From assembly GCA_016182045.1 (NCBI GenBank), contig JACOYE010000007.1:34121-98120 (forward strand): DNA of 64,000 nucleotides, in the 5' to 3' direction. This document shows, piece after piece, positions 3,063 through 53,832 of this stretch; positions within the stretch are counted from its first letter, which is position 1; every line of letters starts with the position of its first letter. The notes under the pieces were generated by a model. That model made no database searches and was not told where the DNA came from. It worked only from the letters and a program-made list of their open reading frames with translations. Source of the DNA: Candidatus Microgenomates bacterium. GTDB lineage: Bacteria > Patescibacteriota > Microgenomatia > Daviesbacterales > UBA10151. A program made the position numbers and the translations under genes.

Positions 3063-6000
3063 TTATTTATCTAAACCTAAATATTCATCCCAACTTTTGA
3101 TTTCTAAATCTTCCATTTTCTTAGAAACTAGGCTTGAAATTAACAGTTCTGCTGCTTGTAAGTTAGTCACTAAAGGTATACCTAAGTCTATACAATTTCT
3201 TCTGATAATATATCCATCAGTTTCTACTCTCTCAGATTTCGGCTCACTAATATTTATAGCCAGATCAATCTGACCTTTCTGTAAAAAGTCTAACACAGAA
3301 GGGTGTTTACCCTCAGATATTTTATACAGTCTGGTGTTGTTAACCTTCACATCTTTTAAGAATTTTGAGGTATGTTCTGTTGCATATATCTTAAAACCTA
3401 ATATTGCAAGCTGATTGGCAGACTCAAGTAAAGCTACTTTATTTATTTGCCCCCCAATTGACAAAAATACACTATTTTTAGGTATCTTAAATCCTGTGGC
3501 AAGCAAAGATTTAAGATAAGCTTCCCTTAGATCATCACCAAAACATGCCACTTCCCCAGTTGAGGACATCTCAACTCTAAGTCTTGGGTCAGCCCCTTTA
3601 ATTCTGTTAAAAGAAAACTGGGGAGCTTTCACTCCCACGTAATCTAAATCTATGGTCTTAAAATCACCAGTTATATTCTCTCCCAACATTACTCTTACTG
3701 CCATATCAACAAAATTATAACCTGTTACTTTTGACACAAACGGAAAGGAACGGGATGCACGAAGGTTTAACTCAATCACCAAAATCTTTAAATCTTTGGC
3801 TAAAAACTGAATATTAAATGGACCATTAATATTTAATTCGCGAAGTACTTTTTGGGTAGCATCCTTGATTTTTCTGACAGTTTTCAAATAGAGCTTTTGC
3901 GGAGGTAGGACAATGGTGGCATCACCAGAGTGGACTCCGGCATTTTCTATATGTTCCGTGATGGCATAAATGAGAAGCTGACCTTTTTTAGCGACTCCGT
4001 CAATTTCAATCTCTTTTGCGCCTTCTACAAACTTTGAGATTACCACTGGGTATTCTGAGGATACATTTGATGCTTGTTTCAGATATTTTTTTAGATCCGA
4101 TCCAGAATATGCTACATTCATGGCAGAACCTGACAAAACATAAGAGGGTCTTATTAAAACAGGATATCCTATTTTTTTGGCAAAAGTTAAAGCATCATCT
4201 ATTGTCTTTAAACTTTGCCATACAGGTTGTTCTATCCCCAACTTATCCAAAAGCTTGGAAAATTTGTTTCTATCTTCTGCCTTGTCAATACTTTCAGGTG
4301 AAGTACCTAATATCCGATATCTTGCTCTAAAACAATCCATGGCCAAATTATTTGAAACTTGGCCCCCAAAACCTAAAACCAGACTTGTATTTTGTTCCAT
4401 ATCATAGATATCACTTACTCGTTCAAATGTCAGTTCCTCAAAATACAACTTATCCGCAATATCATAATCTGTGGAGACTGTTTCCGGATTACAGTTAATC
4501 ATGATCGTCTGAAGACCCTTAGCCTTTAAAGTTTGAGCCGCAGTCACAGCACACCAGTCAAACTCCACAGATGATCCAATCCGATATGGCCCTGATCCTA
4601 AAACAATAGCTTTCTTACTATCCACTGTACCCTGTCCCCTGTCACCTATTTCAGATTCTTCTCCATGATATGTCAGATAAAGATAGTTAGTCTTGGCAGG
4701 AAACTCCCCTGCCAAAGTATCAATGTGTTTGACTTTGGGAACTATTCCATTCTTTTTTCTAAATTTTCTTAATTCCTCTTCAGTCATCTTGAATGTTTTA
4801 GCCAATAACTGATCTGAAAACCCCAATTTCTTAGCATCCATCACTAACTTGCTTGCCCCACGAAACTTTAGTGAAGTGGGGTTACTTGTTACTTGTCTCT
4901 TGTCACTTGGTAGATTTTTCTCAAAATCTACTATCTCTTTTATCTGATACAAAAACCAAGGATCAATTCCTGTTGCTTGATAGATACTATCTACAGATTC
5001 TCCTTTAACAAACCTTTGAGCAATGACAAAAAGCCGCTGGGTGGTGGGTAAAAGCTTGGTATCATCTATCCCATTTCCCAGTAACCCGTCTTGACCAGTC
5101 TCTAACATTCTGATTGCTTTTTGTAAACTTTCCGGAAAACTTCTACCAATTGCCATGACCTCCCCCACGCTTTTCATCTCAGAACCTATTTGCTCATAAG
5201 CTCCCACAAATTTTTGCAAGTCCCATCTGGGGATTTTAACCACAATATAGTCTAGGGAAGGTTCAAAAAAGGCAGAGGTAGATAAGGTGACACTATTTTT
5301 TAGATTTGGCAAACTATATCCTAAACCAATTTTGGCGGCAATATAGGCTAAGGGATAACCTGTGGCTTTGGAAGCTAAGGCTGATGAGCGAGAAAGTCTG
5401 GCATTAACCTCAATCACCCGGCAGTCGTTATTCTGGGGATTTAGGGCAAACTGGATATTACACTCCCCCACAATCCCCAAATGCTCAATAACTTTTAAAG
5501 ATAGCTTTCGCAAAAAATGATATTGATAATTGTTTAAGGTTTGAGATGGAGCAACCACAATACTTTCACCTGTATGTATACCAAGCGGATCCATATTTTC
5601 CATGTTACAAACAGTGATTTTGTTACCAGCTTTATCTCTGACCACTTCATATTCCACTTCTTTCCAATGTTTCAAATATTCCTCCACAGCAATTTGGGGG
5701 ACATGGGCTAATGCATTGGTAGCCATCCTGATCAATTCTTCTTTATTGTCAACCACCCCTGAACCCAAACCGCCCAGGGAAAAACCTGATCTAATTAGTA
5801 AGGGGTATCCTATTCTTTTTGAAATTTTTACAGATTCTTCGATAGTAGAAGCAAATCCCCCTTTCGGCACTTTAATATTAATCTTGGCAAGTTCTTTTGC
5901 AAAAAGCTCTCTGTCTTCTGTGATTTCGATTGATCTTACGGGGGTTCCTAAAACTTTTACACCATACTTCTTAAAGACTCCAGCTTTTTCGAGACTTAGC

Positions 6001-6278
6001 CCACAATTTAAGGCAGTTTGGCCCCCAAATGAAAGCATTACCCCATCCGGTTTCTCTTTTTCGATGATTTTTTCCACAAAATATGGGGTGACTGGCAAAA
6101 AGTAAATTTTCCCTGCCAATTCTTTTGAGGTCTGAATAGTGGCTATATTGGGATTTATTAAAACTGTCTCTAAGCCTTCTTCTTTCAAAGCTTTTAAGGC
6201 TTGAGATCCGGAATAGTCAAATTCCCCAGCCTCGCCTATTTTTAAAGCTCCTGAACCAAGAACTAAAACTTTTTTCAT
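3063..6278 (-). CDS. carB: carbamoyl-phosphate synthase large subunit
   Basis: 1071 aa, duplicated ATP-grasp halves, N-term MKKVLVLGSGALKIGEAGEFDYSGSQA. Confidence 0.95.
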   Translation of the reverse strand: MKKVLVLGSGALKIGEAGEFDYSGSQALKALKEEGLETVLINPNIATIQTSKELAGKIYFLPVTPYFVEKIIEKEKPDGVMLSFGGQTALNCGLSLEKAGVFKKYGVKVLGTPVRSIEITEDRELFAKELAKINIKVPKGGFASTIEESVKISKRIGYPLLIRSGFSLGGLGSGVVDNKEELIRMATNALAHVPQIAVEEYLKHWKEVEYEVVRDKAGNKITVCNMENMDPLGIHTGESIVVAPSQTLNNYQYHFLRKLSLKVIEHLGIVGECNIQFALNPQNNDCRVIEVNARLSRSSALASKATGYPLAYIAAKIGLGYSLPNLKNSVTLSTSAFFEPSLDYIVVKIPRWDLQKFVGAYEQIGSEMKSVGEVMAIGRSFPESLQKAIRMLETGQDGLLGNGIDDTKLLPTTQRLFVIAQRFVKGESVDSIYQATGIDPWFLYQIKEIVDFEKNLPSDKRQVTSNPTSLKFRGASKLVMDAKKLGFSDQLLAKTFKMTEEELRKFRKKNGIVPKVKHIDTLAGEFPAKTNYLYLTYHGEESEIGDRGQGTVDSKKAIVLGSGPYRIGSSVEFDWCAVTAAQTLKAKGLQTIMINCNPETVSTDYDIADKLYFEELTFERVSDIYDMEQNTSLVLGFGGQVSNNLAMDCFRARYRILGTSPESIDKAEDRNKFSKLLDKLGIEQPVWQSLKTIDDALTFAKKIGYPVLIRPSYVLSGSAMNVAYSGSDLKKYLKQASNVSSEYPVVISKFVEGAKEIEIDGVAKKGQLLIYAITEHIENAGVHSGDATIVLPPQKLYLKTVRKIKDATQKVLRELNINGPFNIQFLAKDLKILVIELNLRASRSFPFVSKVTGYNFVDMAVRVMLGENITGDFKTIDLDYVGVKAPQFSFNRIKGADPRLRVEMSSTGEVACFGDDLREAYLKSLLATGFKIPKNSVFLSIGGQINKVALLESANQLAILGFKIYATEHTSKFLKDVKVNNTRLYKISEGKHPSVLDFLQKGQIDLAINISEPKSERVETDGYIIRRNCIDLGIPLVTNLQAAELLISSLVSKKMEDLEIKSWDEYLGLDK

Positions 6279-6289
6279 AACCCTCCTTT

Positions 6290-6366
6290 GTCATTGCGAG
6301 GAGCGAAGCGACGTGGCAATCTTTACTAATCAAGATCCTTCGGTCACTTCGTTCCCTCAGGATGAC
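6290..6366. repeat. ~77-bp palindromic hairpin element (GTCATT...GATGAC) in carA-carB intergenic spacer
   Basis: gtcattgcgaggagcgaagcgacg...cggtcacttcgttccctcaggatgac inverted arms. Confidence 0.7.
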
Positions 6367-6400
6367 AAAATGCGTTTAGAAATTTTACGCATTTTGTCAA

Positions 6401-7468
6401 CTACAAATATGAGACAAATTCATCAAACAAATATCCTGCATCAACTGGACCTGGATTTGCTTCAGGATGAAACTGAACTGCCAAGAATGGCTTTTTTTTG
6501 TGTCTTATTCCTTCATTAGTGCCGTCATTTAAGTTGACAAACCACTCCACCCATTCTGATTCCAAAGATTTCATATCCACTGCAAAACCATGATTTTGAG
6601 AAGTGATTATGGCTTTTTTATTGGTCACATCTTGAACCGGCTGATTTTGACCTCGGTGGCCAAATTTTAATTTATAGGTGTTGCCTCCTACTGCCAAAGC
6701 CAATATTTGACTTCCTAAACAAATACCAAAAGTTGGAACGCCTTCCCTGAGTAGTTGTTCCACAACCTTAATGGTTTTTTTGGCCTGTTTTGGATCTCCC
6801 GGACCATTGGAAACTACCACTCCATCAAATTTAAGTTTTAAAGTTTTCGGATTGAAGTCCCAAGGCACACGAGTAACCCTAACATCTCTTTTTAAGAGTG
6901 AACGAACTATATTTTCTTTGGCTCCACAATCAATTAGCACAATATTTCTCTTTCCAGATCCATAGGTTTCTACCTCATCCACACTCACATATGGCAAAAC
7001 ATTCTCAGCATTGGGATCATACTGTCTGATAGCTGAAGACTGTTGACTGACGATTATCCTACCCAGCATCACCCCATGCTCCCTTAATTTGATAGTCAAA
7101 GCCCTAGTGTCTATCCCCTGTAGCGCTGGTATCCCTTCATCTTTTAACCACTCAGCCAAAGTTTTCTGGCTTTCAAAATGTGACGGGTGATCAATGTAAT
7201 TTTGAACAATTAATCCTTTAACTTGAATTTTTCCAGATTCCCAAAAATCTTTTTTTGGCACTCCATAATTTCCCACCAAAGGGTAAGTTAGAACCAAAAT
7301 CTGGCCAAAATATGATGGGTCTGTTAAAGATTCCGGATATCCCACCATGCCAGTATTAAAAACCACCTCTCCTGACCCCGATTCAATCGGGGCTGAGGTG
7401 GAATGTTGGAAGCCAAAGGACTCTCCGATAAATTCTGTCCCATCTGATAAAATCAGCTTGCCTGTCAT
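6401..7468 (-). CDS. carA: carbamoyl-phosphate synthase small subunit (glutamine amidotransferase)
   Basis: 355 aa, GICLGSQ amidotransferase Cys motif, CarA N-domain. Confidence 0.95.
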   Translation of the reverse strand: MTGKLILSDGTEFIGESFGFQHSTSAPIESGSGEVVFNTGMVGYPESLTDPSYFGQILVLTYPLVGNYGVPKKDFWESGKIQVKGLIVQNYIDHPSHFESQKTLAEWLKDEGIPALQGIDTRALTIKLREHGVMLGRIIVSQQSSAIRQYDPNAENVLPYVSVDEVETYGSGKRNIVLIDCGAKENIVRSLLKRDVRVTRVPWDFNPKTLKLKFDGVVVSNGPGDPKQAKKTIKVVEQLLREGVPTFGICLGSQILALAVGGNTYKLKFGHRGQNQPVQDVTNKKAIITSQNHGFAVDMKSLESEWVEWFVNLNDGTNEGIRHKKKPFLAVQFHPEANPGPVDAGYLFDEFVSYL

Positions 7469-11720: not shown

Positions 11721-13094
11721 TTACTTCCCTTCCCAGTGTCCCAACCCCAAAAATTCTCTGACATGGTACGGCAATTGTTCTTCCCTAAAAAATAGGCTTG
11801 GTTTAAGTCCAAATAACCCAATCAACATGATGATCGCCCCCAGTGCCATCAAAATCGGTGTGGTACCAAAAATATCTGCCAGCAGTCCCGCAAGAAGAAT
11901 CGGTAAAAGAGACAGTCCCGACATGGCTACTCCAAGAGTGGCAAAAACTTTGCCTCTGTCTTGCTGGGGAGTATTTTCCTGTAAGACTGTTTGAGATGGA
12001 ACCAAGATTGATACCATCACTATCCCCAACAAAAATGACACTACAACCAATACGGCAGATAGAGGGGGTTGATAAAAAAATGGTAATGGTTTGGGGCGAG
12101 GAAGATGCTGAATAGCTGGAACGATAATCGGGGCAATCCCCACCAAGAAAAACAGTAATCCCCCAAAAAGAATTGATCTTGCCACAACTATTCTTTTGAT
12201 TAATCTTTGACCGATTCTACCTAAAACTAATCCACCGATGACTATTCCTAAACCTAAAGGTATCACTAAAACGTATGAGGCATCTGTGGCAGTAATTTGT
12301 AAAGTTTTCTCAAAAAATGAGGGCATTAAAACTGCCAAAACCCCAATCAAAAGCTGAACCAAAGCCAAGATTACTACCGAGGTTAGTACCGACAACTTAC
12401 CTCGTATCAAGTGAATGGTCTCCAAAATTTCAAATAACCCTACCTCCTTTATGGTTGACAGATGTCTTTTTCTGATGGCCCAAATTAATTTTTTCCCCTG
12501 CATATCTGGTGCTGTCACAATGGAGGGAAAAATCAAGGAAAGTAAGAAGGCAAGGGATACAAGTGTCCCACCTAATCCAAAAACAAAATTAATGCCTAAA
12601 TGATTTATCAAAGGCCCTGCCAAAGCAAAACCTACCAAAAAACAGGAGAAAACTGTGCTGGAAAATATCGCATTGGCTGTTATTAGTTGATCCTTTTTGA
12701 CAATAATTGGAACTGCTGAGGCTTCAGCTGGAGTATAAAATTGCCCCAAAGCATTAACGAAAAAGGCAACAACAAGAATTGCCGGATAACTTTCTTTAAA
12801 AAATATCAGACTAAAGAAAGCCAAACTTAGCAAAAAATCAATCATCATGATAATTTTTTTTCGATCAGTGATATCAACTAAAACTCCTGAAAAAAGACCC
12901 AAAAGTAAGGCAGGAAGGTAGATGGCAAAAATAAGGGCTGAAACAGCGACTGATGAACCTGTTAATTGAAATACCCAGATAATTAAAGCAAAGTTTAATA
13001 AGTTATAGGAAAGCTGAACCAAAATTTGATTAATCCAAAGGTTTAAAAACCCCCGGTTTTTTATTACCGAGGTAAAACTGACTCTTGCGGTCAT
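11721..13094 (-). CDS. MFS transporter
   Basis: 457 aa, ~12 predicted TM segments. Confidence 0.7.
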   Translation of the reverse strand: MTARVSFTSVIKNRGFLNLWINQILVQLSYNLLNFALIIWVFQLTGSSVAVSALIFAIYLPALLLGLFSGVLVDITDRKKIIMMIDFLLSLAFFSLIFFKESYPAILVVAFFVNALGQFYTPAEASAVPIIVKKDQLITANAIFSSTVFSCFLVGFALAGPLINHLGINFVFGLGGTLVSLAFLLSLIFPSIVTAPDMQGKKLIWAIRKRHLSTIKEVGLFEILETIHLIRGKLSVLTSVVILALVQLLIGVLAVLMPSFFEKTLQITATDASYVLVIPLGLGIVIGGLVLGRIGQRLIKRIVVARSILFGGLLFFLVGIAPIIVPAIQHLPRPKPLPFFYQPPLSAVLVVVSFLLGIVMVSILVPSQTVLQENTPQQDRGKVFATLGVAMSGLSLLPILLAGLLADIFGTTPILMALGAIIMLIGLFGLKPSLFFREEQLPYHVREFLGLGHWEGK

Positions 13095-13099
13095 AACTG

Positions 13100-14032
13100 T
13101 CAGCTATTATACCCTTTTTGACAATTAGGGCAAAGGTATGTGCCTCGACCTCCTAATTGAATCTTCTTAATTTTCGTGCCACAAATTTTGCATGGATGTT
13201 TATCACGTCCATAGACATAAGCATAATCTAGAAAATAACCTTTATGGCCTTCAGCATCTACAAAATGAGCTCTGGTGGAACCTCCATATTTAATCCCATC
13301 TTTTAAAGATTTAATAATCCCTTTGTAAAGTTTTTTAAATTGTTCATCATTCAAATCTCTTACTCTTACTCGTGGGTCTAAACCTGCACTAAAACAAGCC
13401 TCATTAGAGTAAATATTCCCCACTCCAGAGACTACTGTTTGATCCATAGTAGCCACTTTTACAGGCATGGATTTATGTCTTAATAGGTTTTGTTTAAGAA
13501 TTTGCCAAGTAAATCCTCTTTCTAATGGCTCTGGTCCCAGATTTTTCAATGAACTGTCCACTGTAACCTGTCCCCTGTCCACTGCTTTAACCCATCCGAA
13601 CTTTCTTTGGTCATTAAAATACAAATGCGAACCATCTGAAAAACTGAATATAATCCTAGTATGCGCATTTGGCATTTTCCCCACCATATCTGGAGTAGGA
13701 TGCCCACCTACTAACCTTTGACCATCCTCATAAATTAATTGTCCAGTCATTTTTAAATGGAATAGTAGGGTAACAAAATTGTCATTCCCGCGTAGGCGGG
13801 AATCCAATTCCGAACGAGACTTTTTTAATTGGATCCCTGCATTCGCAGGGACGACGTCCACACCTAAATACTTAGCTTTTCTCCATATATTGAGTACTTT
13901 TTTACCCTCCACCAAATTTGGATTTCCAATGAAAGATTTAGCAGAATTTATTTGGATTTTGGTAATTTTTAACCCAACAATTTTCTTTTGTAACCCCAGT
14001 TTAATTGTTTCAACTTCAGGTAACTCCGGCAC
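13100..14032 (-). CDS. mutM: formamidopyrimidine-DNA glycosylase with in-frame palindromic-element insertion
   Basis: MPELPEVE N-terminus, C-terminal zinc finger CKICG...CPNCQ; ~30-aa insert between RKAKYL and LLFHLKMTG. Confidence 0.85.
   Translation of the reverse strand: MPELPEVETIKLGLQKKIVGLKITKIQINSAKSFIGNPNLVEGKKVLNIWRKAKYLGVDVVPANAGIQLKKSRSELDSRLRGNDNFVTLLFHLKMTGQLIYEDGQRLVGGHPTPDMVGKMPNAHTRIIFSFSDGSHLYFNDQRKFGWVKAVDRGQVTVDSSLKNLGPEPLERGFTWQILKQNLLRHKSMPVKVATMDQTVVSGVGNIYSNEACFSAGLDPRVRVRDLNDEQFKKLYKGIIKSLKDGIKYGGSTRAHFVDAEGHKGYFLDYAYVYGRDKHPCKICGTKIKKIQLGGRGTYLCPNCQKGYNS
13781..13855. repeat. ~75-bp palindromic element (family GTCATTCCCGC...GCGGGAATGAC), in-frame within mutM
   Basis: gtcattcccgcgtaggcgggaatccaatt...aattggatccctgcattcgcagggacgac; encodes VVPANAGIQLKKSRSELDSRLRGNDN. 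Confidence 0.8.
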
Positions 14033-14128
14033 TTGAAATCACTGAATCACAGAATTGTCCACTGAAAACACAGAAACTTTCAGTGTTTCTGTGAACTTCT
14101 CAGTGCTCTCTGTGATTGCAAGCCTCCT

Positions 14129-14506
14129 TTATACAATTACTCTTTTTATTTCTAATTTGCTTTTTCCAAAATTTAAAATCAGTCCTAGCTGTAACTTAGC
14201 AGCCTTTAGATAACCTACTAATTGTTTAGCATGTAAATCCATTATCTCTCGGACTGCTTTTAACTCTACCACTATCTTCTTATATACTCGAAAATCCATT
14301 ACCTCATATCCAATATCTTTACCTTCATAAATTACCCTAAAAGTTTCTTCTCTGGTAAACGGAATGCTCCTTCTTCTGAATTCTTCTGCTAGTGCTCGTT
14401 GATAAATCTTTTCAGGATAACCAGGACCGAGCTTTTTATGCACTTCAATAGCAGAACCAATTATTTTATCTGTTAAATCGCTATCTGGATAATATCCCTG
14501 AACCAC
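14129..14506 (-). CDS. GxxExxY family protein (PD-(D/E)XK-like)
   Basis: IGSAIEVHKKLGPGYPEKIY pattern. Confidence 0.65.
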   Translation of the reverse strand: MVQGYYPDSDLTDKIIGSAIEVHKKLGPGYPEKIYQRALAEEFRRRSIPFTREETFRVIYEGKDIGYEVMDFRVYKKIVVELKAVREIMDLHAKQLVGYLKAAKLQLGLILNFGKSKLEIKRVIV

Positions 14507-14549
14507 TCTTACTGTTATACACTAAACACAGAAAGCAGCACAATACCTG

Positions 14550-15134
14550 TTAAAAGTGCAGTTTCTTCCCCAGTTTGAATTTAATAAGTAAAACAAATAT
14601 AGAACAAATAGAAAATATATATATAGGAAATGCAATATTAGCAAAATTATAATCTTTGAGCGTAAGAATAGTTATTATTGCAGCTATTCCAGCAAATAAA
14701 AAAGCCTGATAATTTTCAGTCTCAGGAAATTTATAAGATTTTATTAAAGTAGGAACTGCTGCTAATCCGTCAGCCAAAATGGCAAATAAAATTGCTATAT
14801 TCCCTATTTGTGTAATAGCCCAAAGCATAAGAGCCAGTAAAGATAATACCCCACAACCCAAATCAAAGTTTGTTATTTTCCACTCGGACTTTTTGTTTAA
14901 AAAGGAAGCACCAAAAATAACCAAAGGACTAAGACCAACTGTCAGAGTCATCAGAGAAGAAAGACCTACCCCCTGGGTAATTTGAGCAGCAAAAGCAATG
15001 ATTGGTGCCAATCCCCACAAAAACCAGGTAACTTTATTTGGTTTCGTCTTACCTTTTAACGTATCTATCAAATAACTTAAACTACCAAATAAATTCAGTG
15101 CAACTGCTAAAAATACAAACTTTTCATCTATCAT
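14550..15134 (-). CDS. hypothetical membrane protein
   Basis: 194 aa, multiple TM helices. Confidence 0.4.
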   Translation of the reverse strand: MIDEKFVFLAVALNLFGSLSYLIDTLKGKTKPNKVTWFLWGLAPIIAFAAQITQGVGLSSLMTLTVGLSPLVIFGASFLNKKSEWKITNFDLGCGVLSLLALMLWAITQIGNIAILFAILADGLAAVPTLIKSYKFPETENYQAFLFAGIAAIITILTLKDYNFANIAFPIYIFSICSIFVLLIKFKLGKKLHF

Positions 15135-15137
15135 AAT

Positions 15138-15950
15138 TTAGATTACCTTAACAAGTTTTCCACTATTTAGGATACTTTTTAGGATAAAGGCAAAAAAGAG
15201 GACCGAAGCGGTAAAGTAGAAAATATTTAAAATAAAGGCTAGCCAGAAAGATTGAATATCAAATTGCCCCCCTTTTATGATCTGTCTCATCCCTTCAAAT
15301 ACATGAGAAATTGGAATAAAGTAGGCAATCTTTTGAAAAACTTCCGGTAAAATATTGATGGGATAAAATACCGCTGCAAAAGGCTGCAGTAAAAAAGGCA
15401 TGATCCAGGTTAGCGGCCCGATTGAATGGCCGTATCTTAATACCAGTGAGATATTAAAAATGCCAAAAGAGGTGGCGAAAATAAACAAATTCAGAGCAAA
15501 AAGGGACAGTCCCAAGCCTAAAGAAGTAATCTGAAAGTTATAAAAAATTGCAGCCATAATCCACATAGACAAAAAAGTAATGGTAATTTTTATTAAACTG
15601 ACTAAAATAAGTCCGCTGATATATTCCAAGAAGGTAATGGGAGTGGATAAAACATTAATTAGATTTCTGTCCCAAATATCAAACATAAAATTGACCCCGA
15701 TATCAGTTGAGACTTTCTCAAAAATCACCCAAAGCATGATCCCACCCAGTAAAAAAGCTGCCAAAGTTGGGGTATTAAGTCCTTGAATATATGATGATAA
15801 AAATCCCCAAAGCACTATCATTAAAACCGGTGAGATTAACACATCAAAAAACCGCTCCAGCTGGTGAATGGCTGTGAAATAATGTCTTATTACTATGGCA
15901 AAAACCCGGTTAAAATTCATCTTGATGTCTTGATAAGTGTATAAACACAT
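15138..15950 (-). CDS. ABC-2 type transporter permease
   Basis: 270 aa, 6 TM; overlaps upstream ABC ATPase gene. Confidence 0.6.
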   Translation of the reverse strand: MCLYTYQDIKMNFNRVFAIVIRHYFTAIHQLERFFDVLISPVLMIVLWGFLSSYIQGLNTPTLAAFLLGGIMLWVIFEKVSTDIGVNFMFDIWDRNLINVLSTPITFLEYISGLILVSLIKITITFLSMWIMAAIFYNFQITSLGLGLSLFALNLFIFATSFGIFNISLVLRYGHSIGPLTWIMPFLLQPFAAVFYPINILPEVFQKIAYFIPISHVFEGMRQIIKGGQFDIQSFWLAFILNIFYFTASVLFFAFILKSILNSGKLVKVI

Positions 15951-16665
15951 CTCTTAAATTAGGTTCATCTGCTCCCCCCTTTAACACTTTCTGTGTTAGC
16001 TCCAAAGGTGAACCCTGGGCAATAATCTTTCCATGATTTAAAAAAATCACATTTGAGGCAACCTCCTCTATTTCCCACATATTGTGGGAGGTATAAAGTA
16101 TGGTAATCTTTTCCTCCTTCTGAATTTGTTTTATCATGGTAATCCCTTTATCCACAATATCCGGATCCATGGAAGCCATGGGTTCATCAAGTAGCAGTAG
16201 TTTTGGATTATTAAGGAATGCTTTACACAAATTCCCCCTGGCTCTTTGACCAAAAGAAAGCTCCCTGATATGTTTATTCTTTAAGTGAGATATTTCAAAA
16301 ATCTCCAGTAGCTCATCAATTCTTTTGTTAATATTTTTTAACTCATAAATCTTTCCGAAAACTACTAAACACTCCCAAAGTTTTAAGTTCCAAGGCAGTG
16401 AGAATTCTGCTGAAGCATAACTTACCTGCTTTAAAATCTCACTTCTTGCCTTTTTAATATCTTTGCCGAAAATCTTAATTTGTCCAAAATCAGGATCAAT
16501 CAAACCTAATAAACAATAAATAGTGGTGGATTTTCCGGCTCCATTTGGGCCTAAAAATCCCAAAATCTGACTTTCTTCCAAAGAAAAAGAGATATCATCA
16601 ATTGCTACAAATCCGCCAAAGGACTTCCTTAAATTTTTAACCTCTAAAATAATATTTTTACTCAT
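15910..16665 (-). CDS. ABC transporter ATP-binding protein
   Basis: Walker A GPNGAGKST, LSFGQ signature, LLLDEP Walker B. Confidence 0.9.
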   Translation of the reverse strand: MSKNIILEVKNLRKSFGGFVAIDDISFSLEESQILGFLGPNGAGKSTTIYCLLGLIDPDFGQIKIFGKDIKKARSEILKQVSYASAEFSLPWNLKLWECLVVFGKIYELKNINKRIDELLEIFEISHLKNKHIRELSFGQRARGNLCKAFLNNPKLLLLDEPMASMDPDIVDKGITMIKQIQKEEKITILYTSHNMWEIEEVASNVIFLNHGKIIAQGSPLELTQKVLKGGADEPNLRDVFIHLSRHQDEF

Positions 16666-16677
16666 ATCTTCCTTCTG

Positions 16678-16757
16678 TGATCCCGACGAATGTCGGGATC
16701 CAATTAAAAACCTACCTCAAATGGTTAATTGGATTCCCGCCTATGCGGGAATGACGA
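16678..16757. repeat. palindromic element (same family as 13781 and 29044), intergenic copy
   Basis: gatcccgacgaatgtcgggatccaatt...aattggattcccgcctatgcgggaatgac. Confidence 0.8.
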
Positions 16758-16810
16758 TGTTATTTATTGTAGATCAATTGAAGCTGAATTCCAATCAGGA
16801 GAGTTCATAT

Positions 16811-17770
16811 TTACTGTCTTTTCATTGTCTTTACACTAAATTTACCAAACTTTACTTCTGAACCTTTTCCTTTAAATCTATAATCATTAATTCCAATTCT
16901 AAACTTTTGAGCTTGGTTGAAGCTGTCCTCTAAATTAATAGCTAACGGTTTAAATAAAATATCTTTATATTCTACCCATCTATAATTTACTTCTCCTTCA
17001 GGCAAATAATTCATTTTAAATACCAAATATATAAACCCTGCTTTATAAGTCGCTTCTAGCGTTACAGTTATCTGTTTATCAAGAGTTACGTTCGCATCAC
17101 CCAACTTTCTTCTAGTAACTTCTGCCCACTTCTCCTTTCTTCCTGAATCATTTTTTTCTACCTTCCATGTTAATCTATCACCATCACCTATTAGAATTCT
17201 AAAAACTTCCTCAAATTCTAAAAAAATTCCAATTGATTGATTCTTCCTAGGAATTGCTGAAAAGGTAGCAATCCAAGGTAATGAACAGTCAAATTGATAT
17301 CTTTTTGCTGCCTGAAAAGTATCTGATTCAGGAGCAGCTACAACCGAAAGGTCATGCGGATCTGGATAAACGAACTTCTCTTTCCCTTCAACATCATTAA
17401 ACTCCAGTATTATCTCAACTGGAATACCTTCACATGGACGAGCTACAATACCTTTCACTCTTTCTTCATCAAGGGGAGTTTGTGAAGCCATAGAACTTGG
17501 AGAAATTTCGGGCTCATTTATAGGCAAAGGCGTTTGATTGCTTATTCCCATGCTTACCAAACTCTTTACACTATTTACCCCATCAATGAGATCTCCTGCT
17601 TTAATAAAAAAGATGATTAAACAGGCTATAAGTATTATTAGGAAAACAAAAATGAATGCTACTTTCCTTCCAGTCTTTCTTTCAATCCATGTAGAAATTG
17701 TCCTAGGAAAATTACCAATAAAATCCCATGACTTTGACCACACATCATCATGTTGTTGTTTAATGCTCAT
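16811..17770 (-). CDS. hypothetical membrane-anchored protein
   Basis: 319 aa, one N-terminal TM then soluble domain. Confidence 0.4.
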   Translation of the reverse strand: MSIKQQHDDVWSKSWDFIGNFPRTISTWIERKTGRKVAFIFVFLIILIACLIIFFIKAGDLIDGVNSVKSLVSMGISNQTPLPINEPEISPSSMASQTPLDEERVKGIVARPCEGIPVEIILEFNDVEGKEKFVYPDPHDLSVVAAPESDTFQAAKRYQFDCSLPWIATFSAIPRKNQSIGIFLEFEEVFRILIGDGDRLTWKVEKNDSGRKEKWAEVTRRKLGDANVTLDKQITVTLEATYKAGFIYLVFKMNYLPEGEVNYRWVEYKDILFKPLAINLEDSFNQAQKFRIGINDYRFKGKGSEVKFGKFSVKTMKRQ

Positions 17771-18528: not shown

Positions 18529-19521
18529 TCAGGAGAGTTTGCCTGAGCGGGCCAAAGATGCAGCTTTGCATCTTTTATAAAACTCTTCTTGAGCAGCTTT
18601 AATATTTTCTGCTTTCCCTGCCCAAATCTTCATGGGAGCATTTTGTAATCCTCTGGAATAGGAAAAAGTCAATGGCCAGGGGCCGCCTATTTTGTTAATC
18701 TCTAAAAGATTAGCAACAGCAGATTCATCGGATTGTCCACCTGATAAAAATGCAATTCCACCAACCTCTGGCGGAACAGATTGCTTTAAAGCATCCACGC
18801 TCATTTGTGCAACCTTTTTAGAATCAGCCTGAGTAGGACAATCTTTTCCGGACAAAACCATGCTGGGTTTTAAAACCATCCCTTCTAAAGCTACCTTATG
18901 AGCTTTTATCCTTTCAAAAACCATTTTTAAAGTTCTAACTTGAGCTTCAAAACACTGCTCTATGGTGTGATCCCCATCCAATAAAACTTCCGGTTCCACC
19001 ACCGGCACTATATCCTGTTCCTGACATAAAGCTGCATAGCGGGCCAAAACCTCGCTGTTTGCCTCAATGCAGGTATCTGTGGGAATCCCTTCTCCTATTT
19101 GAATAGTGGCCCTGAATTTGGCAAATTTGGCCCCCATCCCTTTATACTCTGTCAATCTGTCTCTTAGTCCATCCAGACCTTCTGCCACCTTTTCATTGGG
19201 AAAGTTTGCTAAATCATGCACCCCCTTATCCACTTTTATCCCCGGGATAATTCCTTTGCTTTCCAAGTATTGGCAGACAGATTTTCCATCAATAGATTGT
19301 CTGATTGTCTCATCAAATAAAATTATTCCCGATAAAAATTCTTCAACTCCAGGGGTAGTAAAAAGCATCTGTCTGTAGGCAAGTATTGACTCCGCTGTAC
19401 ATTCAATCCCTAAAGCATCAAATCTTTTTGTAATGGTTTTAGTTGACTCATCTGCAGCCAAAAGCCCTTTGGGGGGGACCATCATTGCTTGAGCTGTCTG
19501 TTTAAGTGTAGTTATATCCAT
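18529..19521 (-). CDS. fructose-bisphosphate aldolase, class I
   Basis: LLAADES motif and Schiff-base region LEGMVLKPSMV. Confidence 0.85.
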   Translation of the reverse strand: MDITTLKQTAQAMMVPPKGLLAADESTKTITKRFDALGIECTAESILAYRQMLFTTPGVEEFLSGIILFDETIRQSIDGKSVCQYLESKGIIPGIKVDKGVHDLANFPNEKVAEGLDGLRDRLTEYKGMGAKFAKFRATIQIGEGIPTDTCIEANSEVLARYAALCQEQDIVPVVEPEVLLDGDHTIEQCFEAQVRTLKMVFERIKAHKVALEGMVLKPSMVLSGKDCPTQADSKKVAQMSVDALKQSVPPEVGGIAFLSGGQSDESAVANLLEINKIGGPWPLTFSYSRGLQNAPMKIWAGKAENIKAAQEEFYKRCKAASLARSGKLS

Positions 19522-20513
19522 CAGTGATGAACCCGTTTCTCTATCTTCACACCATCATTATCAACTGTCAAGGTTGTTACTTCACTTCCCCCTTCACCCT
19601 TTACCCTTACACCATCCAAATCAAACCACTTATCATCTCCTGTGATAGAAGAGACAGACACCAAACAATTCTCCAATTTACCAGTCACCAAATCATCAAC
19701 ACTCCATATTTTGGTATACCTTTTTTGAATTTGAGCATCTCCTGACCAACCCCTTGCTTCACAAAACCCTCCTATTGCTTTTGCTGCCACCGCTGCTAAA
19801 ATCCCTTCCTCAAATCCCCCACTGCCTATAATAAGATATACACCCTTTTTGTGGGTTGTAGGATCCATGAAAGATAAAATAGATGGCAAAAAATCTCCGG
19901 CTTTAATTAAAATTAAATTCACTCCAAATTTCTCACAAGCATTAATGTAGTGTGCATTTCTATCCCTGTCCATTACTACTACATTAATCTGGTGAGATTG
20001 AATCTTAAATGTGTCCACAACTTCAGCCAAATTTTCCTCAGGAGTTTTACTCATAGACAACTTTCCTTTAAGTTGGGGCGGGCCAAATAATTTATCCATA
20101 TAATCTGTATCATCAGGTGTTCTCATCAAACCTTTATGGGAAGAAACAGCTACAACAGATACAGCTCCGGGAGTGTTTAACTTAGCAGCTTTTGATCCTT
20201 CCACTACATCATTAACCATGTCCAGTTTTTTACTTCCTGATCCAAATGTACCCATCAAGGTAGGTAAAGCTTCACCATATTGGTGAACATGTTTTCTGCC
20301 CTCAGAACCCACTATTTCCAGGGTGAATGGGATATCAGTCAGAGAGGCTGCCATAGCATCTACACCAGCCTGATCTATTAATTTTTCTCTTTTAATAGAT
20401 TCTTCTTCAGTTAAAAGATCATCTGCAGTAAATCCTTGCTGCTGAATTAATCTCCAAACAGATAAAGCAGTCAACTCTGTGGCGCGGGTAATATGGTGTT
20501 TAACAGAATCCAT
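19521..20513 (-). CDS. glpX: fructose-1,6-bisphosphatase class II
   Basis: C-terminal LIKAGD...IIGSGGFEEGILAAVAAKAIGGFCEAR matches GlpX family. Confidence 0.75.
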   Translation of the reverse strand: MDSVKHHITRATELTALSVWRLIQQQGFTADDLLTEEESIKREKLIDQAGVDAMAASLTDIPFTLEIVGSEGRKHVHQYGEALPTLMGTFGSGSKKLDMVNDVVEGSKAAKLNTPGAVSVVAVSSHKGLMRTPDDTDYMDKLFGPPQLKGKLSMSKTPEENLAEVVDTFKIQSHQINVVVMDRDRNAHYINACEKFGVNLILIKAGDFLPSILSFMDPTTHKKGVYLIIGSGGFEEGILAAVAAKAIGGFCEARGWSGDAQIQKRYTKIWSVDDLVTGKLENCLVSVSSITGDDKWFDLDGVRVKGEGGSEVTTLTVDNDGVKIEKRVHH

Positions 20514-27559: not shown

Positions 27560-27936
27560 ATCAATTTTAAACCTTTTATTCCTTTAAAATCTTTTTTATT
27601 TAAGGTAAAAATAGAGGCTTTATTTAAAATAGCTGTGGCAGCAATAGCTGCATCTGGAAATCCTAATGATCGACCTAAATCTCTGATTATCTTTCCTGCC
27701 AATTGAGCTATCTCATAAGTATAAGGTAAAATCTCCATTCCGCTAATAAGCTCTAAGAATAATTGTTCTTTGGTAAGTTCTCTGCTACTTTTTCCTGAGT
27801 ATAATTCTTGAATTGTGAGTATTGAAATTGCTAATGTCTTCTGAGGATATAATTTGATAAATTCTGCCAATGGTGAGTTAGTCTGTTCTGGTCTTCTTAA
27901 GAAGTCAATTAATATACTCGTATCTAAAATTACCAT
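27556..27936 (-). CDS. vapC: PIN-domain toxin VapC
   Basis: MVILDTSILIDF N-terminus. Confidence 0.8.
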   Translation of the reverse strand: MVILDTSILIDFLRRPEQTNSPLAEFIKLYPQKTLAISILTIQELYSGKSSRELTKEQLFLELISGMEILPYTYEIAQLAGKIIRDLGRSLGFPDAAIAATAILNKASIFTLNKKDFKGIKGLKLI

Positions 27937-28193
27937 GCTTTTCTCATCTTTTTAGCAGCTGCAATCTCTAATTTTCTCCTTTTTTGATAATCCTCCCAAT
28001 CCGTACCGCCAGCCCAGGCACCTCTGGTTTCTTCTAAAATTTCAAGCAATGTTTTCTTTTTTTCTAATTTTAAAGTGGCACCATTTTTTGATTTTTTAAC
28101 CTCCAGTTTTTGTCCAGGTTTAAACCCCAGCTTTTTAGGCAGGGTTACTACAGTAGAAGAACCGAGTTGAAAGACAGAAACAATATTACTCAT
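27930..28193 (-). CDS. vapB: AbrB/MazE-type antitoxin VapB
   Basis: swapped-hairpin VSVFQLGSSTVVTLPKKLG. Confidence 0.7.
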   Translation of the reverse strand: MSNIVSVFQLGSSTVVTLPKKLGFKPGQKLEVKKSKNGATLKLEKKKTLLEILEETRGAWAGGTDWEDYQKRRKLEIAAAKKMRKAW

Positions 28194-28275
28194 ATATATA
28201 ATTTTCTCATTTCATATATATGATGTCAAGTGATTAGCTTGATTTCTCCCCAATTGGGGCCGACTTTTAGATCAA

Positions 28276-28506
28276 CTATTGCCAGTTAAAAACAGGCACT
28301 TCAAGGGTATTGAGAGGATTTTTGGCTTTATTTTTAACTAAATCATCAAGTTTTTTAGAAACTTCAGCTGAATAATATCTTTCTCCACACTGAATACAAA
28401 TCTCTACAGGAACATCTTGGATCACAAAAAGCTTGTTGCCCCACCTGAAGTCAACATCCACATTTTTTATTTCAGTTTTACCTTGACAAAAATAGCATTT
28501 AAACAC
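28276..28506 (-). CDS. YgiT-type zinc-finger protein (putative antitoxin)
   Basis: CxxC...CxxCGERYY pattern. Confidence 0.6.
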   Translation of the reverse strand: MFKCYFCQGKTEIKNVDVDFRWGNKLFVIQDVPVEICIQCGERYYSAEVSKKLDDLVKNKAKNPLNTLEVPVFNWQ

Positions 28507-28807
28507 GGCTTTTTATCTCCTTTGCTCTTGTTTTCCAATTTATCCAAGTTGGCTTCTTTGGTCTATAATTGGTGACAATTAATAACCTTTTATTTCTAAA
28601 TCCACAGACCACATGCAATTTTTTGCTTCCTACTAGACAACTTCCACCTCTTAGATCTTCCGGATACTTTTCAATTATAGCACCTTTTAAAAGTGTTTTC
28701 TCTATCTCATCAGTTGTAGTTTGTTCTTCTTGTCTTTCCTTGTGAGTATGCTCAGAAAGGTCATATTCCCCGGCTCTAACTTTCTTTCTAATAGTTTTAA
28801 TATCCAT
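28499..28807 (-). CDS. DUF4258 domain protein (putative toxin)
   Basis: EKYPEDLRGGSCLVGSKKLHVVCGF pattern. Confidence 0.6.
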   Translation of the reverse strand: MDIKTIRKKVRAGEYDLSEHTHKERQEEQTTTDEIEKTLLKGAIIEKYPEDLRGGSCLVGSKKLHVVCGFRNKRLLIVTNYRPKKPTWINWKTRAKEIKSRV

Positions 28808-28856: not shown

Positions 28857-31115
28857 CTAAATTTTAAGTGGTTTCATTTCTCCCCAATTGGGGCCTACTT
28901 TTAAATCCACCACCACAGGACCAGATAATTTTAAGGCTTTTTCCATTTTATCTTTAACCATTTTAGCCGCTTCTTTTACCATCCTTGGGTCGCATTCAAA
29001 TAGCAGCTCATCATGAACCTGGAGAATCATTTGGCAAGAATCTGTCATCCCGTACTTGATACGGGATCCATGTGATTTATTTGTATAGATTCCCGCTTTC
29101 GCGGGAATGACGTTGGAAATCTCCACCATGGCTTTTTTGATCATGTCAGCTGCGCTGCCTTGGACCGGATGATTTATGGCAGCTCTTTCTCCTGCAGACC
29201 GAATCATTCTATTATCAGCCTTAAGCTCCGGAATATAACGTCTTCTACCCCATAAAGTTTCCACATATCCTTTTTCATACCCGAAAGCAAGAGTCTCCTG
29301 CATCCATTCCCTAACCAGAGGAAATTGCTCAAAATACTCCATAATATATTGCTGGGCTATTCCGTATTCCACTCCCAGCTGACGAGACAGCGCATGCGGC
29401 CCTTGACCATAAAGGGTGGCAAAATTCATGGTTTTGCCCACCATCCTTTGCTGCTTTGTCACTTTATCTTGAGGCACCTTAAATATTTTTGAGGCAGTCA
29501 AAGCATGAATATCCAAACCTTCTTCAAAAGCCCGTTTTAAACCCGGATCTTTGGAAAGATGAGCCATGATCCTAAGTTCTATCTGAGAATAGTCTGCACC
29601 CAGTAAAACCTTCCCTTTGGGAGAGATAAAAGCCTTTCTGATTTCCCCACCTATTTCCCCTTTTATGGGGATATTTTGAAGATTGGGATTTTGGGAACTG
29701 ATCCTACCAGTGGCAGCGCCTTCCACATTAAAAGTGGAGTGGATTCGTCCATCAGATCCTACTGATTTAGGCAAAGCATCAATATATGTTGAAACCAGCT
29801 TGAATGATTGGCGGTACTCTAAAAGCAACGGTACAACTGGATGAGCTGCAGATAATTCATGAAGTGTTGCCTCATCTGTTGATCTACCTGTTTTGGTTTT
29901 TCTGACAACCGGTAATTTTAATTCATCAAATAACACTTCTGATAGTTGCTTTGGGCTGTTTAGATTAAACTGATGTCCTACTATTGAGTAAATCTCATTC
30001 TCAATCTTTATTAATTTAGCTTTTAGATCTTTCCCAAGTCTATTTAAAAACTTAAGATCTATTAATATTCCCACCTCTGACATTTTCTGAAGAACAGGGA
30101 TAACCTGAGCATCCAGATCTGATGTTGTTTTTGATTGTCGGAATGACTCAGAAGGACTCGGAGTACCAGACAAATCAGATTTCCGGTTTGTCTGACTATC
30201 AGATTTACTGACACGCTGGTTATCTGAGTTTTCCGAGTGTTCTGAAACACCAGGAATTCTTCCCATCAAGCTCTTAAACTCCAACTCCTCAAATAATCCC
30301 ACCACTTTATCCTTATCAAAATCTTGTACCTGACACTTTTTCAGATCCAGCTTAATGGGAGCTTTAGTATCCAAGGTGGCCAGTTTTTTGCTCATCACAG
30401 CAGATTCAGCTCCCTCAGACAAAAGGGTCTGCATTCTCTCTGGTAAAGTTTTCAAGTTTTGAGGCTGATAGATGTTTTCTATTTCACCAAACTGGTGAAT
30501 CAGCTTGGTGGCTGTCACGTCCCCTATCCCAGCTACCCCTGGAATATTATCCGAGGCATCACCTGCCAAGGCTTTATAATCCACCAAAAGTTTTGGCTCA
30601 AATCCGTAACGGAGAACAAATTCTTCCTTCCCATAAAGCCCCACATCGGCAAGGGTTTTTTTGGGCATAAAAACTTTTACTTTTCCATTAATTAGCTGCA
30701 TGATATCCCGATCTCCTGTCACCACGATTAATTCCATACCATGATCCAGTTTTTGAGCTTGCAAAGCCAGTGTGCCGATTAAATCATCCGCCTCATATCC
30801 AGCCAGAGAAAATTCCGGGATATTAAATGCCTCTACCGTCTGATGGACTCTTTTGTATTGGTTATCCAAAGCCTGATCCATTTCAGCTCTGGTGGCTTTA
30901 TACTGAGTATAAGTCTGATGCCTAAAGGTGGGTCCCCTTTCGTCCCAACAAACAGCCAGATAATCGGGCTTAAGTTCAGAAATAACCTTCAGAACCATCG
31001 AGGAAAAACCATAGACAGCATTCACTAACTCCCCTTTGGAGGTGGTAAAAGGAGGGGTGGCATGATAGGCACGGTGAAGCAAAGCATTCCCATCTACAAG
31101 TACCAGTCGCTTCAT
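28857..31115 (-). CDS. polA: DNA polymerase I lacking 3'-5' exonuclease domain, with in-frame palindromic-element insertion
   Basis: 752 aa; 5' nuclease N-domain, S-rich low-complexity linker, polymerase motifs incl. QVHDELLFE. Confidence 0.9.
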   Translation of the reverse strand: MKRLVLVDGNALLHRAYHATPPFTTSKGELVNAVYGFSSMVLKVISELKPDYLAVCWDERGPTFRHQTYTQYKATRAEMDQALDNQYKRVHQTVEAFNIPEFSLAGYEADDLIGTLALQAQKLDHGMELIVVTGDRDIMQLINGKVKVFMPKKTLADVGLYGKEEFVLRYGFEPKLLVDYKALAGDASDNIPGVAGIGDVTATKLIHQFGEIENIYQPQNLKTLPERMQTLLSEGAESAVMSKKLATLDTKAPIKLDLKKCQVQDFDKDKVVGLFEELEFKSLMGRIPGVSEHSENSDNQRVSKSDSQTNRKSDLSGTPSPSESFRQSKTTSDLDAQVIPVLQKMSEVGILIDLKFLNRLGKDLKAKLIKIENEIYSIVGHQFNLNSPKQLSEVLFDELKLPVVRKTKTGRSTDEATLHELSAAHPVVPLLLEYRQSFKLVSTYIDALPKSVGSDGRIHSTFNVEGAATGRISSQNPNLQNIPIKGEIGGEIRKAFISPKGKVLLGADYSQIELRIMAHLSKDPGLKRAFEEGLDIHALTASKIFKVPQDKVTKQQRMVGKTMNFATLYGQGPHALSRQLGVEYGIAQQYIMEYFEQFPLVREWMQETLAFGYEKGYVETLWGRRRYIPELKADNRMIRSAGERAAINHPVQGSAADMIKKAMVEISNVIPAKAGIYTNKSHGSRIKYGMTDSCQMILQVHDELLFECDPRMVKEAAKMVKDKMEKALKLSGPVVVDLKVGPNWGEMKPLKI
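29044..29110. repeat. palindromic element (GTCATCCCG...GCGGGAATGAC) in-frame inside polA
   Basis: gtcatcccgtacttgatacgggatcc...gattcccgctttcgcgggaatgac; encodes VIPAKAGIYTNKSHGSRIKYGMTD between conserved Pol motifs. Confidence 0.8.
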
Positions 31116-53437: not shown

Positions 53438-53478
53438 AACTTAAGGGTAGAATAAACAAACAGATGCGTCAACCCCGA

Positions 53479-53733
53479 TTAAATCGGGGTTAATTTTAAT
53501 CCTAAAATTCTGATTTTTTGTTCTCTGCTCCAGCCTTTTATTTGTCTTTCTCTTTTTAAAGCTTCTGATTGATTTGGTAATTTCTCAGAATAAATCATCT
53601 TAAGAGGTTGATGGGATCTGGTGTAATGCCCGCCTTTGCCATTTTTATGATCAGAAAATCTTTTTTCTAAATTATTAGAAACCCCAGTATAAAGACTGCC
53701 ATCTTTACATAAAAGTACATAAACAAACCACAT
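53479..53733 (-). CDS. GIY-YIG nuclease family protein
   Basis: FVYVLLCKDGSLYTGVSNNLEKRFSDH pattern. Confidence 0.8.
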   Translation of the reverse strand: MWFVYVLLCKDGSLYTGVSNNLEKRFSDHKNGKGGHYTRSHQPLKMIYSEKLPNQSEALKRERQIKGWSREQKIRILGLKLTPI

Positions 53734-53760: not shown

Positions 53761-53832
53761 CGCGGGGAAGTGTAACGGCTGCACACAAGGCTCATAATCT
53801 TGAGGCAGTGGGTTCGACTCCCGCCCCCGCAA
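53761..53832 (+). tRNA. initiator-type tRNA-Met (CAT)
   Basis: 5' CGCGGGG and 3' CCCCCGCAA acceptor identical to E. coli tRNA-fMet (C1xA72 mismatch), anticodon loop CTCATAA. Confidence 0.8.

Follow-up and report, generated by a model that had tools for sequence, protein, structure and literature searches.

How does a palindromic repeat come to lie in the middle of a repair gene whose reading frame is still open? The question is raised by a 64,000-nt stretch of DNA from a Candidatus Microgenomates bacterium (contig JACOYE010000007.1), which is called the window in its full length and whose numbering is used for its coordinates. At positions 13781–13855 it carries a 75-nt element inside fpg, also named mutM. 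An initial annotation had described this element as a palindrome similar to the Rickettsia palindromic elements (RPEs), inserted in frame; its letters, gtcattcccgcgtaggcgggaatccaatt-ccgaacgagactttttt-aattggatccctgcattcgcagggacgac, and its coordinates agree with the sequence. We consider it probable that the element is a dimer of repetitive extragenic palindromes (REPs), similar to a REPIN, which was inserted once in a turn of the Fpg protein and has been translated, tolerated and inherited there.

The element is palindromic as a whole, but the description as a single palindrome had to be revised, as it consists of two REP hairpins of the CGTC type with GC-rich stems of 7–8 bp, arranged head-to-head. 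Hairpin A (13781–13809) has an unpaired tag TGTC (13780–13783), an 8-bp stem ATTCCCGC/GCGGGAAT (13784–13791 paired with 13796–13803) around the loop GTAG, and the tail CCA (13804–13806). A centre of 17 nt (13810–13826) separates the arms of the dimer. Hairpin B (13827–13855) follows in inverted orientation, with TCCCTGC-ATTC-GCAGGGA and then CGAC. Read from the opposite strand, it shows the tag CGTC(G) at 13852–13856, a 7-bp stem (TCCCTGC-GAAT-GCAGGGA) and the tail TCC. Among inverted repeats within a range of up to 120 nt, this one has the top length in the whole window, with 29-nt arms that are 76% complementary. A 25-nt pattern of hairpin A, allowing a maximum of three mismatches, was matched three times in the window and not at all in 100 shuffles. 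Folded as RNA or DNA and in either strand, the element forms two independent hairpins and a short AATTGG/CCAATT pairing, with z-scores of −3.6 and −4.0; none of 200 shuffled sequences folded equally well. A search of the window with Rfam at gathering thresholds yielded three tRNAs only and no RNA family for the element. We also considered an intrinsic terminator and rejected it, since the terminator-like sites found in the region 13000–17000 do not include the element.

REPs with a CGTC tag have been defined by Di Nocera, De Gregorio and Rocco in 2013 (PMC3733652). By their definition, a hairpin of the CGTC-1 class consists of an unpaired CGTC tag (or the variants TGTC and CCTC), a stem of 8 bp whose first letters are AT, a loop of 4 nt and the tail CCA, and mostly forms head-to-head dimers; the class is equated there with dRS3 of Neisseria and RPE-6 of R. 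conorii. Hairpin A of the fpg copy has the tag, the AT stem of 8 bp, the 4-nt loop and the tail, so that the earlier comparison with an RPE holds by way of this equivalence (PMC3733652). Repetition and head-to-head arrangement are seen as well, with three such dimers in the 64 kb of the window and more in related genomes. By its sequence, the 75-nt segment is a non-autonomous REPIN-like element of the CGTC-1 type (dRS3 or NTS in Neisseria, RPE-6 in R. conorii).

The host gene (13100..14032, minus strand; 310 amino acids, GTG start) is intact and was assigned to Fpg/MutM by its domains PF01149, PF06831 and PF06827, by MutM structures in the PDB (E 8e-44) and by AlphaFold matches. The whole element lies inside this open reading frame (ORF), covers exactly 25 codons in the direction of the minus strand, reading VVPANAGIQLKKSRSELDSRLRGND, and keeps the frame. 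For comparison we used the closest 120 Fpg proteins, which apart from the window's own entry are 64–77% identical to it; the named matches among them belong to Candidatus Daviesbacteria of the Candidate Phyla Radiation (CPR; Microgenomates). In 76 of the 120, the site of the element is a turn of at most six residues (2–6, mostly 2–4, such as DK, GN or TGD) between the strands …LGxDL and TLLFHLKM…, and such a segment is likewise missing from all crystallised Fpg proteins, which have 260–273 amino acids. Alignment with the orthologues thus supports an insertion. Its size had been overestimated at about 30 amino acids: 27 residues lie between the flanking strands in the window protein versus three in empty orthologues, a net gain of about 24, or an insert of 24–25 residues. 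On the DNA level, the empty site of one related locus (L003) reads GGT ATA GAA TTA GAT AAA AAT ACT TTG, and the filled site of the window reads GGT GTG GAC GTC [GTC CCT … AAT GAC] AAT TTT GTT ACC CTA.

Beyond the intact ORF, the decorated Fpg retains all invariant columns of a 56-sequence alignment, including P2, E3, K54, M95 and three Cys of the zinc finger; its fourth Cys is shared by at least 90% of these sequences. The statement that the frame was not broken is confirmed. The AlphaFold model of the decorated protein matches MutM crystal structures with target-normalised TM-scores of 0.84–0.88. In this model, residues ~63–86 form an excursion with a pLDDT of 53–68 and a short helix (73–80), located between the strands 55–62 and 87–92, whose pLDDT is ~90. 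An excursion between two strands is what the model predicts for the loop proposed initially. In established MutM structures, the strand after the insert runs to the Met that wedges into the DNA, M77 in the Geobacillus enzyme and M95 here. Because the following strand leads to this residue, the turn that carries the insert should be at the strand end far from the DNA. Such a permissive surface loop would explain why the insert is tolerated.

The spacer upstream of fpg (14040–14128) contains a repeated sequence rich in CACTGA/CACAGA and a terminator-like hairpin (14069–14093). Before this spacer lies a gene for a 125-amino-acid PD-(D/E)XK protein (14129–14506, minus strand; PF13366) with a GxxExxY motif.

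The same element was found at the same fpg codon in three other independent assemblies, represented by the loci L001 (NCBI; also as L002 and L126 in ENA, from Hainich), L160 (JGI) and L005 (ENA). As assemblies made independently of each other agree on the codon, an assembly error, considered at the outset, is excluded. The Fpg protein of L001 is 74% identical to that of the window, and its element is identical at 71 of 75 nt; for the element of L160 the value is 72 of 75 nt. L005 carries a derivative in which the centre is deleted, with both hairpins kept and the frame still open (VPANAGIYIDSRFRGND). A frame that survives such a deletion inside the element speaks for selection to keep it open. 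In L160 (1984–2300), fpg has the element plus an upstream deletion of ~46 nt that shifts the frame, on a contig of 2.7 kb.

The element is much more conserved than the gene around it. The fpg genes of the window and L001 have diverged to 72% nucleotide identity, and both are open. Between them, the hairpin modules are identical at 57 of 58 positions versus 609 of 846 for the rest of fpg (Fisher p 3e-7), and third codon positions are identical in 23 of 25 cases in the element versus 145 of 282 (51%) in the gene. The 17-nt centre, with 14 of 17 identical positions, is not significantly above the gene. As the modules are near invariant while the synonymous sites of fpg are saturated, the sequences argue that the stems are constrained at the level of the nucleic acid. 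A non-functional cause is plausible, since a change that is silent in one arm has to be matched by one that alters an amino acid in the other, and possibly recognition by an enzyme or an RNA structure contributes a functional one. Orthologous copies of the element are 94.7–96% identical versus 88% for a paralogous copy in the same genome, that of L001. Because the orthologous copies are more alike than this paralogous one, the comparison favours inheritance by vertical descent under constraint over gene conversion; concerted evolution as the source of the conservation was rejected on the same grounds.

That the element is repeated, as noted initially, is evident from three copies in the window, more copies in relatives and a second whole dimer in L001. 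The two further copies that had been placed at 16678 and 29044 are real, with extents of 16676–16757 and 29043–29113. The former, a dimer that belongs to the same family, is intergenic: it follows the stop of ORF 16811..17770 and precedes an ABC ATPase gene (15910..16665; both minus strand), whose ATG is 11 nt downstream. The latter lies in frame in polA (28857..31115, minus strand; 752 amino acids) and is read as VIPAKAGIYTNKSHGSRIKYGMT. Both have the ATTCCCGC-GTAG-GCGGGAAT stem of the fpg copy in hairpin A, with CGTC tags at 16753–16756 and 29109–29112; the intergenic copy has the tail CCA, as in fpg, and the polA copy has CTA. The stems of hairpin B are TCCCTGC/GCAGGGA in fpg, ATCCCGAC/GTCGGGAT in the intergenic copy and, with one mismatch, ATCCCGTAC/ATACGGGAT in polA. 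These differences are paired and compensatory (CCCTGC/GCAGGG, CCCGAC/GTCGGG and CCCGTA/TACGGG).

In L001, the whole dimer including its centre occurs a second time, in frame in an unrelated gene (18817–20205), where it is read as VIPANAGIQLNNSSSKLDPRLRGDD; it is 90% identical to the window copy over 69 nt by BLAST and at 66 of 75 positions without gaps. Across ~0.5 Mb of Daviesbacteria-like DNA, more hairpins of the CGTC type lie in frame, namely in the genes of an ATP-dependent DNA ligase and a glycosyltransferase and at a second Fpg site (L151), and only a few copies were intergenic; since these loci had been collected through fpg, the proportion of repair genes among them is biased. In the window, two other REP types with CGTC/TGTC tags, ATTGCGAG and ATCCTGAG, form a head-to-head dimer at 6289..6367, with the ends TGTC-ATTGCGAG… and …CCTCAGGATGACA. 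It occupies the spacer between the ORFs 6401..7468 and 3063..6278, carA- and carB-like when judged by eye, directly before the ribosome-binding site of 3063..6278.

Directly 3′ of polA, three small genes resembling toxin-antitoxin genes follow on the minus strand (27930–28807), for a DUF4258 protein and for two that are similar to MqsA (a zinc-finger antitoxin; match below the Pfam cut-off) and to MazE/AbrB. The GC skew of the window is negative nearly throughout, its cumulative value falls to about −5 without a turning point, and the GC content is 34–44%.

Looking across the orthologues, both host sites are hot spots. Inserts of 10–37 amino acids occur in this one Fpg turn in ~42 of the 120 orthologues (~35%) and belong to at least eight sequence families. 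Among these are head-to-head dimers with CGTC or TGTC tags and other stems, namely ATTGCGAG in L163 and L202, ATTCTGG in L147 and ATCCTGAG in L155, all beginning at the same or an adjacent codon, as well as long imperfect palindromes without a tag in L143, L146 and L156. Mapping the turn inserts by Fitch parsimony on a neighbour-joining tree gave 30–41 changes; as the tree of these close sequences is poorly resolved, we use only the lower bound of at least eight families. Other variable sites of Fpg are the interval GQLIY-RFIG, a site before LGPEPL (L151, 3552–3625, with a REP dimer) and one near residue 35 (L001, NQNGKPFDPSASLRAGFTQG).

In PolA, the insert is located in the loop between the helix QGxAAD-IKKAM and the motif QVHDE. 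L001 (5863–5888) and L003 (37–62) have a different, single REP in polA, TGTC-ATTGCGAG, read VIASEAKQS, at the same codon as the dimer of the window. The inserts of the window and of L001 and L003 both start with GTCATT and share codon, orientation and phase. Of the 109 proteins whose loop borders could be set, 89 have a loop of 15 amino acids; those shown with 15 amino acids are all among the more distant matches, and their few named members are bacteria outside the CPR. Daviesbacteria-like proteins have loops of 10–47 amino acids with several types of repeat-derived inserts. Empty orthologues and in-frame inserts are thus found for both Fpg and PolA, as for RPEs.

To place these copies in a wider frame, we scanned one genome per species for the exact 24-nt hairpin pattern GTCATTCCCGC-N4-GCGGGAATC and obtained at least 120 loci. 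More than 20 phyla are represented, including several CPR groups and, with one metagenome-assembled genome (MAG), Nanoarchaeota. The matches are usually inverted doublets, 20–110 nt apart. Among the matches listed, the hairpin lies inside long ORFs in four of ten CPR/DPANN loci versus one of 25 from other genomes below 50% GC. Judged by eye, the host ORFs in CPR MAGs (L035, L046 and L110) resemble GatB, a Tgt-like enzyme and a P-type ATPase, and that in the Nanoarchaeota MAG (L093, ~1450–1540) resembles a DNA methyltransferase; in each of them a CGTC-1 hairpin lies in frame. Forward hairpins read VIPAxAGI in eight of nine independent in-gene cases (binomial p ~1e-3 against one-third), in a sample that is small and heterogeneous; reverse hairpins read DSRxRGND in six of eight cases, which is not significant.

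Which enzyme might move these hairpins was approached through their neighbours. When the ORFs within 400 nt of the hairpin were clustered across the at least 120 loci of many phyla, no transposase family was enriched; only two small GIY-YIG ORFs stood out. A tblastn search of the window and the Daviesbacteria-like loci with probes for REP-associated tyrosine transposases (RAYTs) and IS200 gave no match and is uninformative rather than negative. The window itself has a gene for a single-domain GIY-YIG nuclease of the UPF0213 type (53479..53733, minus strand; 84 amino acids; PF01541), whose best solved relatives are UPF0213 proteins (PDB 1zg2, E 2e-16) and which is 31% identical by tblastn to a hairpin-adjacent GIY-YIG ORF in L045. 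A CGTC-tagged hairpin of 9 bp, CGTC AACCCCGAT TAA ATCGGGGTT (53467..53491, plus strand), has the stop codon of this gene in its loop; whether it is part of the same system is uncertain. The protein may be a relative of the Ssn family with a specificity for hairpins, and it is the only candidate of this kind seen in the window. A tRNA gene (53761–53832, plus strand) adjoins it.

Taken together, a single insertion followed by inheritance is the explanation that we prefer. The element would have entered in the ancestor of a small Daviesbacteria-like subclade, into codons of a tight beta-hairpin turn of the N-terminal beta-sandwich. As its length is a multiple of three and it is stop-free in that phase, it would be transcribed and translated with fpg as an excursion of 24–25 residues, with all conserved residues of Fpg kept and the gene probably still functional. 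The copy would have been passed on vertically since then. Its hairpin modules would be held near invariant by the interlock between hairpin and coding sequence, possibly also by recognition through a hairpin-specific enzyme acting on single-stranded DNA. As the literature suggests, spread may depend on such an enzyme acting in trans on single-stranded DNA hairpins, either a Group 2 RAYT tyrosine transposase or a GIY-YIG nuclease of the Ssn type. Four points weigh against this explanation. Translation and activity of the decorated Fpg are what we infer; L160 may represent a decaying decorated copy, or a misassembled short contig; the very high conservation could mean recent site-specific re-insertion in each lineage; and neither a transposase nor a RAYT nor a cd10448-type Ssn was found in the window or the ~0.5 Mb of related DNA, which is a weak test given 64 kb of genome.

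Two alternatives that do not exclude each other are suggested by the hot spots and by the conservation, respectively. REP-type elements might home to particular DNA sites or to existing hairpins, so that the fpg and polA loops would be colonised anew many times over, each time independently, and the near-identity of the copies would reflect recent parallel insertion. The gathering of at least eight insert families in one loop of ~42 of 120 Fpg orthologues fits this idea, as do the different stem families at the same or adjacent codon (L147, L155, L163 and L202), the shared codon, orientation and phase of the CGTC-1 dimer and the single ATTGCGAG REP in polA, the PolA loop of 15 amino acids outside versus 10–47 inside the clade, and an element far more conserved than the flanking synonymous sites. 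Yet the flanks have diverged at the normal level of the gene right to the borders, the centre (14 of 17) looks like that of an old inherited copy, and similarity to the paralogous copy of the same genome is lower than that between orthologues. At least three other variable sites in Fpg are compatible with a mere filter for permissive loops, the empty sites have no obvious common target motif, and the count of 30–41 changes depends on the poorly resolved tree. We regard targeted insertion as unlikely. Alternatively, the hairpins could be kept inside genes for a function, as cleavage sites for an Ssn-like nuclease or as mRNA structures that tune translation or decay. Cleavage would limit recombination or transformation around repair genes, and the Neisseria Transformation Sequence (NTS) is a substrate of SsnA (PMC11893778). 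The modules with 57 of 58 identical positions against 51% at third positions elsewhere, the compensatory changes in the stems of hairpin B, and the loss of the centre but not of the hairpins in L005 would agree with such a role. So would the window GIY-YIG gene with its CGTC-tagged hairpin, the copies in fpg, polA and a DNA ligase gene, and the concentration of intragenic REPs in replication and repair genes of other phyla that is described in PMC3733652. Interlocking constraints between the arms can, however, freeze stems without any function, and a majority of the orthologues do without an insert. The GIY-YIG protein is of the UPF0213 type and not demonstrably of the Ssn clade (cd10448), and the stem of its hairpin is another one; neither of the published search patterns, NTS and SRM, fits the fpg copy, and the enrichment in repair genes is biased by collecting loci via fpg. 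A maintained function appears improbable to us as well.

Two further explanations fare much worse. If fpg had been inactivated by the insertion, its open frame would be a coincidence in a young pseudogene. A 75-nt element open in two of three phases would indeed keep the frame by chance in about one of four to five cases by our estimate, and the frameshifted fpg of L160 bears the same element. But the 310 codons are intact with all invariant catalytic and zinc-finger residues, the insert is common to lineages whose fpg genes are still open at 72% nucleotide identity, the deletion in L005 is in frame, and apart from the insert a MutM fold is predicted with high confidence, which makes a pseudogene very unlikely. 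That the segment is a native, lineage-specific Fpg loop or an assembly chimera, unrelated to mobile DNA, is hardly credible at all. Loop length is naturally variable in Fpg. However, this 24-nt hairpin is also present at other places of the window and in more than 20 phyla, an unrelated gene holds a second copy of the whole dimer, and four independent assemblies contain the element.

We also put forward a broader idea, which we hold as speculative and rather unlikely: in the CPR, and perhaps in DPANN, many REP families may be a major ongoing source of variation in protein length, recolonising and replacing each other at the same few codons of conserved enzymes in a preferred phase and then staying near invariant. 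If true, this would mean insertion or replacement inside genes that is directed by hairpins or sites, possibly driven by GIY-YIG nucleases or RAYTs, and not random insertion followed by selection.

For the family itself, the results extend the range of the CGTC-1/dRS3/NTS/RPE-6 hairpins into the CPR and to one Nanoarchaeota MAG locus. In genomes that are poor in intergenic space, the elements land inside genes of an essential type and would be translated. Odd segments of 20–40 residues in CPR proteins (VIPAKAGIQ, DSRLRGND, SSLR…PRND) become recognisable as repeat-derived and not as functional domains. The Fpg turn and the PolA loop offer a tractable natural system for asking whether insertion prefers certain sites and whether selection acts on DNA or RNA. 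The data also bear on the enzyme that mobilises CGTC-tagged REPs. These REPs come without a dedicated transposase, and none was known in 2013, according to PMC3733652; later work links the same hairpin only to Group 2 RAYTs (bioRxiv 10.1101/2021.07.10.451892) and to Ssn nucleases (PMC11893778). The kind of event is already known for this hairpin family, including insertions in DNA polymerase I and repair genes (PMC3733652); the host group and the target gene are new. The density of recurrent colonisation of a single loop and the conservation at the nucleotide level may be new, too. Among the papers listed by a literature search that joined REP and CPR terms, none contained the REP term, which is not proof that no such report exists.

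How does the element compare with known systems? Bacterial MITEs (miniature transposable elements with inverted repeats) such as Correia and Nezha are likewise short and non-autonomous, have terminal inverted repeats, and can be co-transcribed and occasionally translated. Unlike in MITEs, each terminal arm is itself a hairpin here, and no related insertion sequence with matching ends was found. A MITE with a target-site duplication was rejected, as no flanking direct duplication was seen in comparison with empty sites.

With RPEs, the element shares that a palindromic repeat lies in frame in a conserved gene, is translated at a permissive site and is missing from some orthologues. In-gene insertion of this kind was reportedly described in 2000 for the RPEs of Rickettsia. 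With ~100–150 nt, the classical RPE-1 exceeds the element in length, and the host here is a free-living or episymbiotic CPR bacterium rather than an intracellular alphaproteobacterium. The likeness to RPE-6 rests on the equivalence with CGTC-1 stated in PMC3733652.

The core hairpin ATTCCCGC-N4-GCGGGAAT with a CGTC 5′ flank is shared with dRS3 and NTS of Neisseria. NTS is a 28-nt sequence, CGTCATTCCCGCGMAVGCGGGAATCYRG, which the small GIY-YIG nuclease SsnA cuts in single-stranded DNA, modulating transformation; related "SRM" hairpins flank ssn genes (cd10448, GIY-YIG_unchar_3) in many bacteria (PMC11893778). Counting as NTS or SRM what has at most one mismatch to NTS or matches the degenerate SRM pattern, only the polA copy belongs here, with one mismatch to NTS and an SRM match of both hairpins (29043–29071 and 29085–29112). 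The fpg and intergenic copies have three mismatches to NTS each and do not match the SRM pattern. NTS repeats were described around genes, and the fpg and polA copies lie in frame within them.

Two inverted REPs less than 130 nt apart that move as one unit are the hallmark of REPINs, and this arrangement is found here. In Neisseria, the 21-mer ATTCCCGCGCAGGCGGGAATC forms a REPIN population linked to a Group 2 RAYT (bioRxiv 10.1101/2021.07.10.451892). REPINs are described as extragenic and as large, near-identical populations, in contrast to the few, diverged copies in this case.

The last comparison is with the CGTC-1 REPs. In PMC3733652, REPs are reported within ORFs, more than half of them as dimers encoding 20–30 amino acids and many in replication or repair genes, including that of DNA polymerase I; an intragenic dimer of just this size in such genes is what we observe. 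The CPR are outside the sampling of that study, and fpg is not among the targets named in the main-text passages covered. In addition, hairpin B is a variant with a 7-bp stem and an extra base after the tag, and in these CPR genomes a large share of the copies is intragenic.

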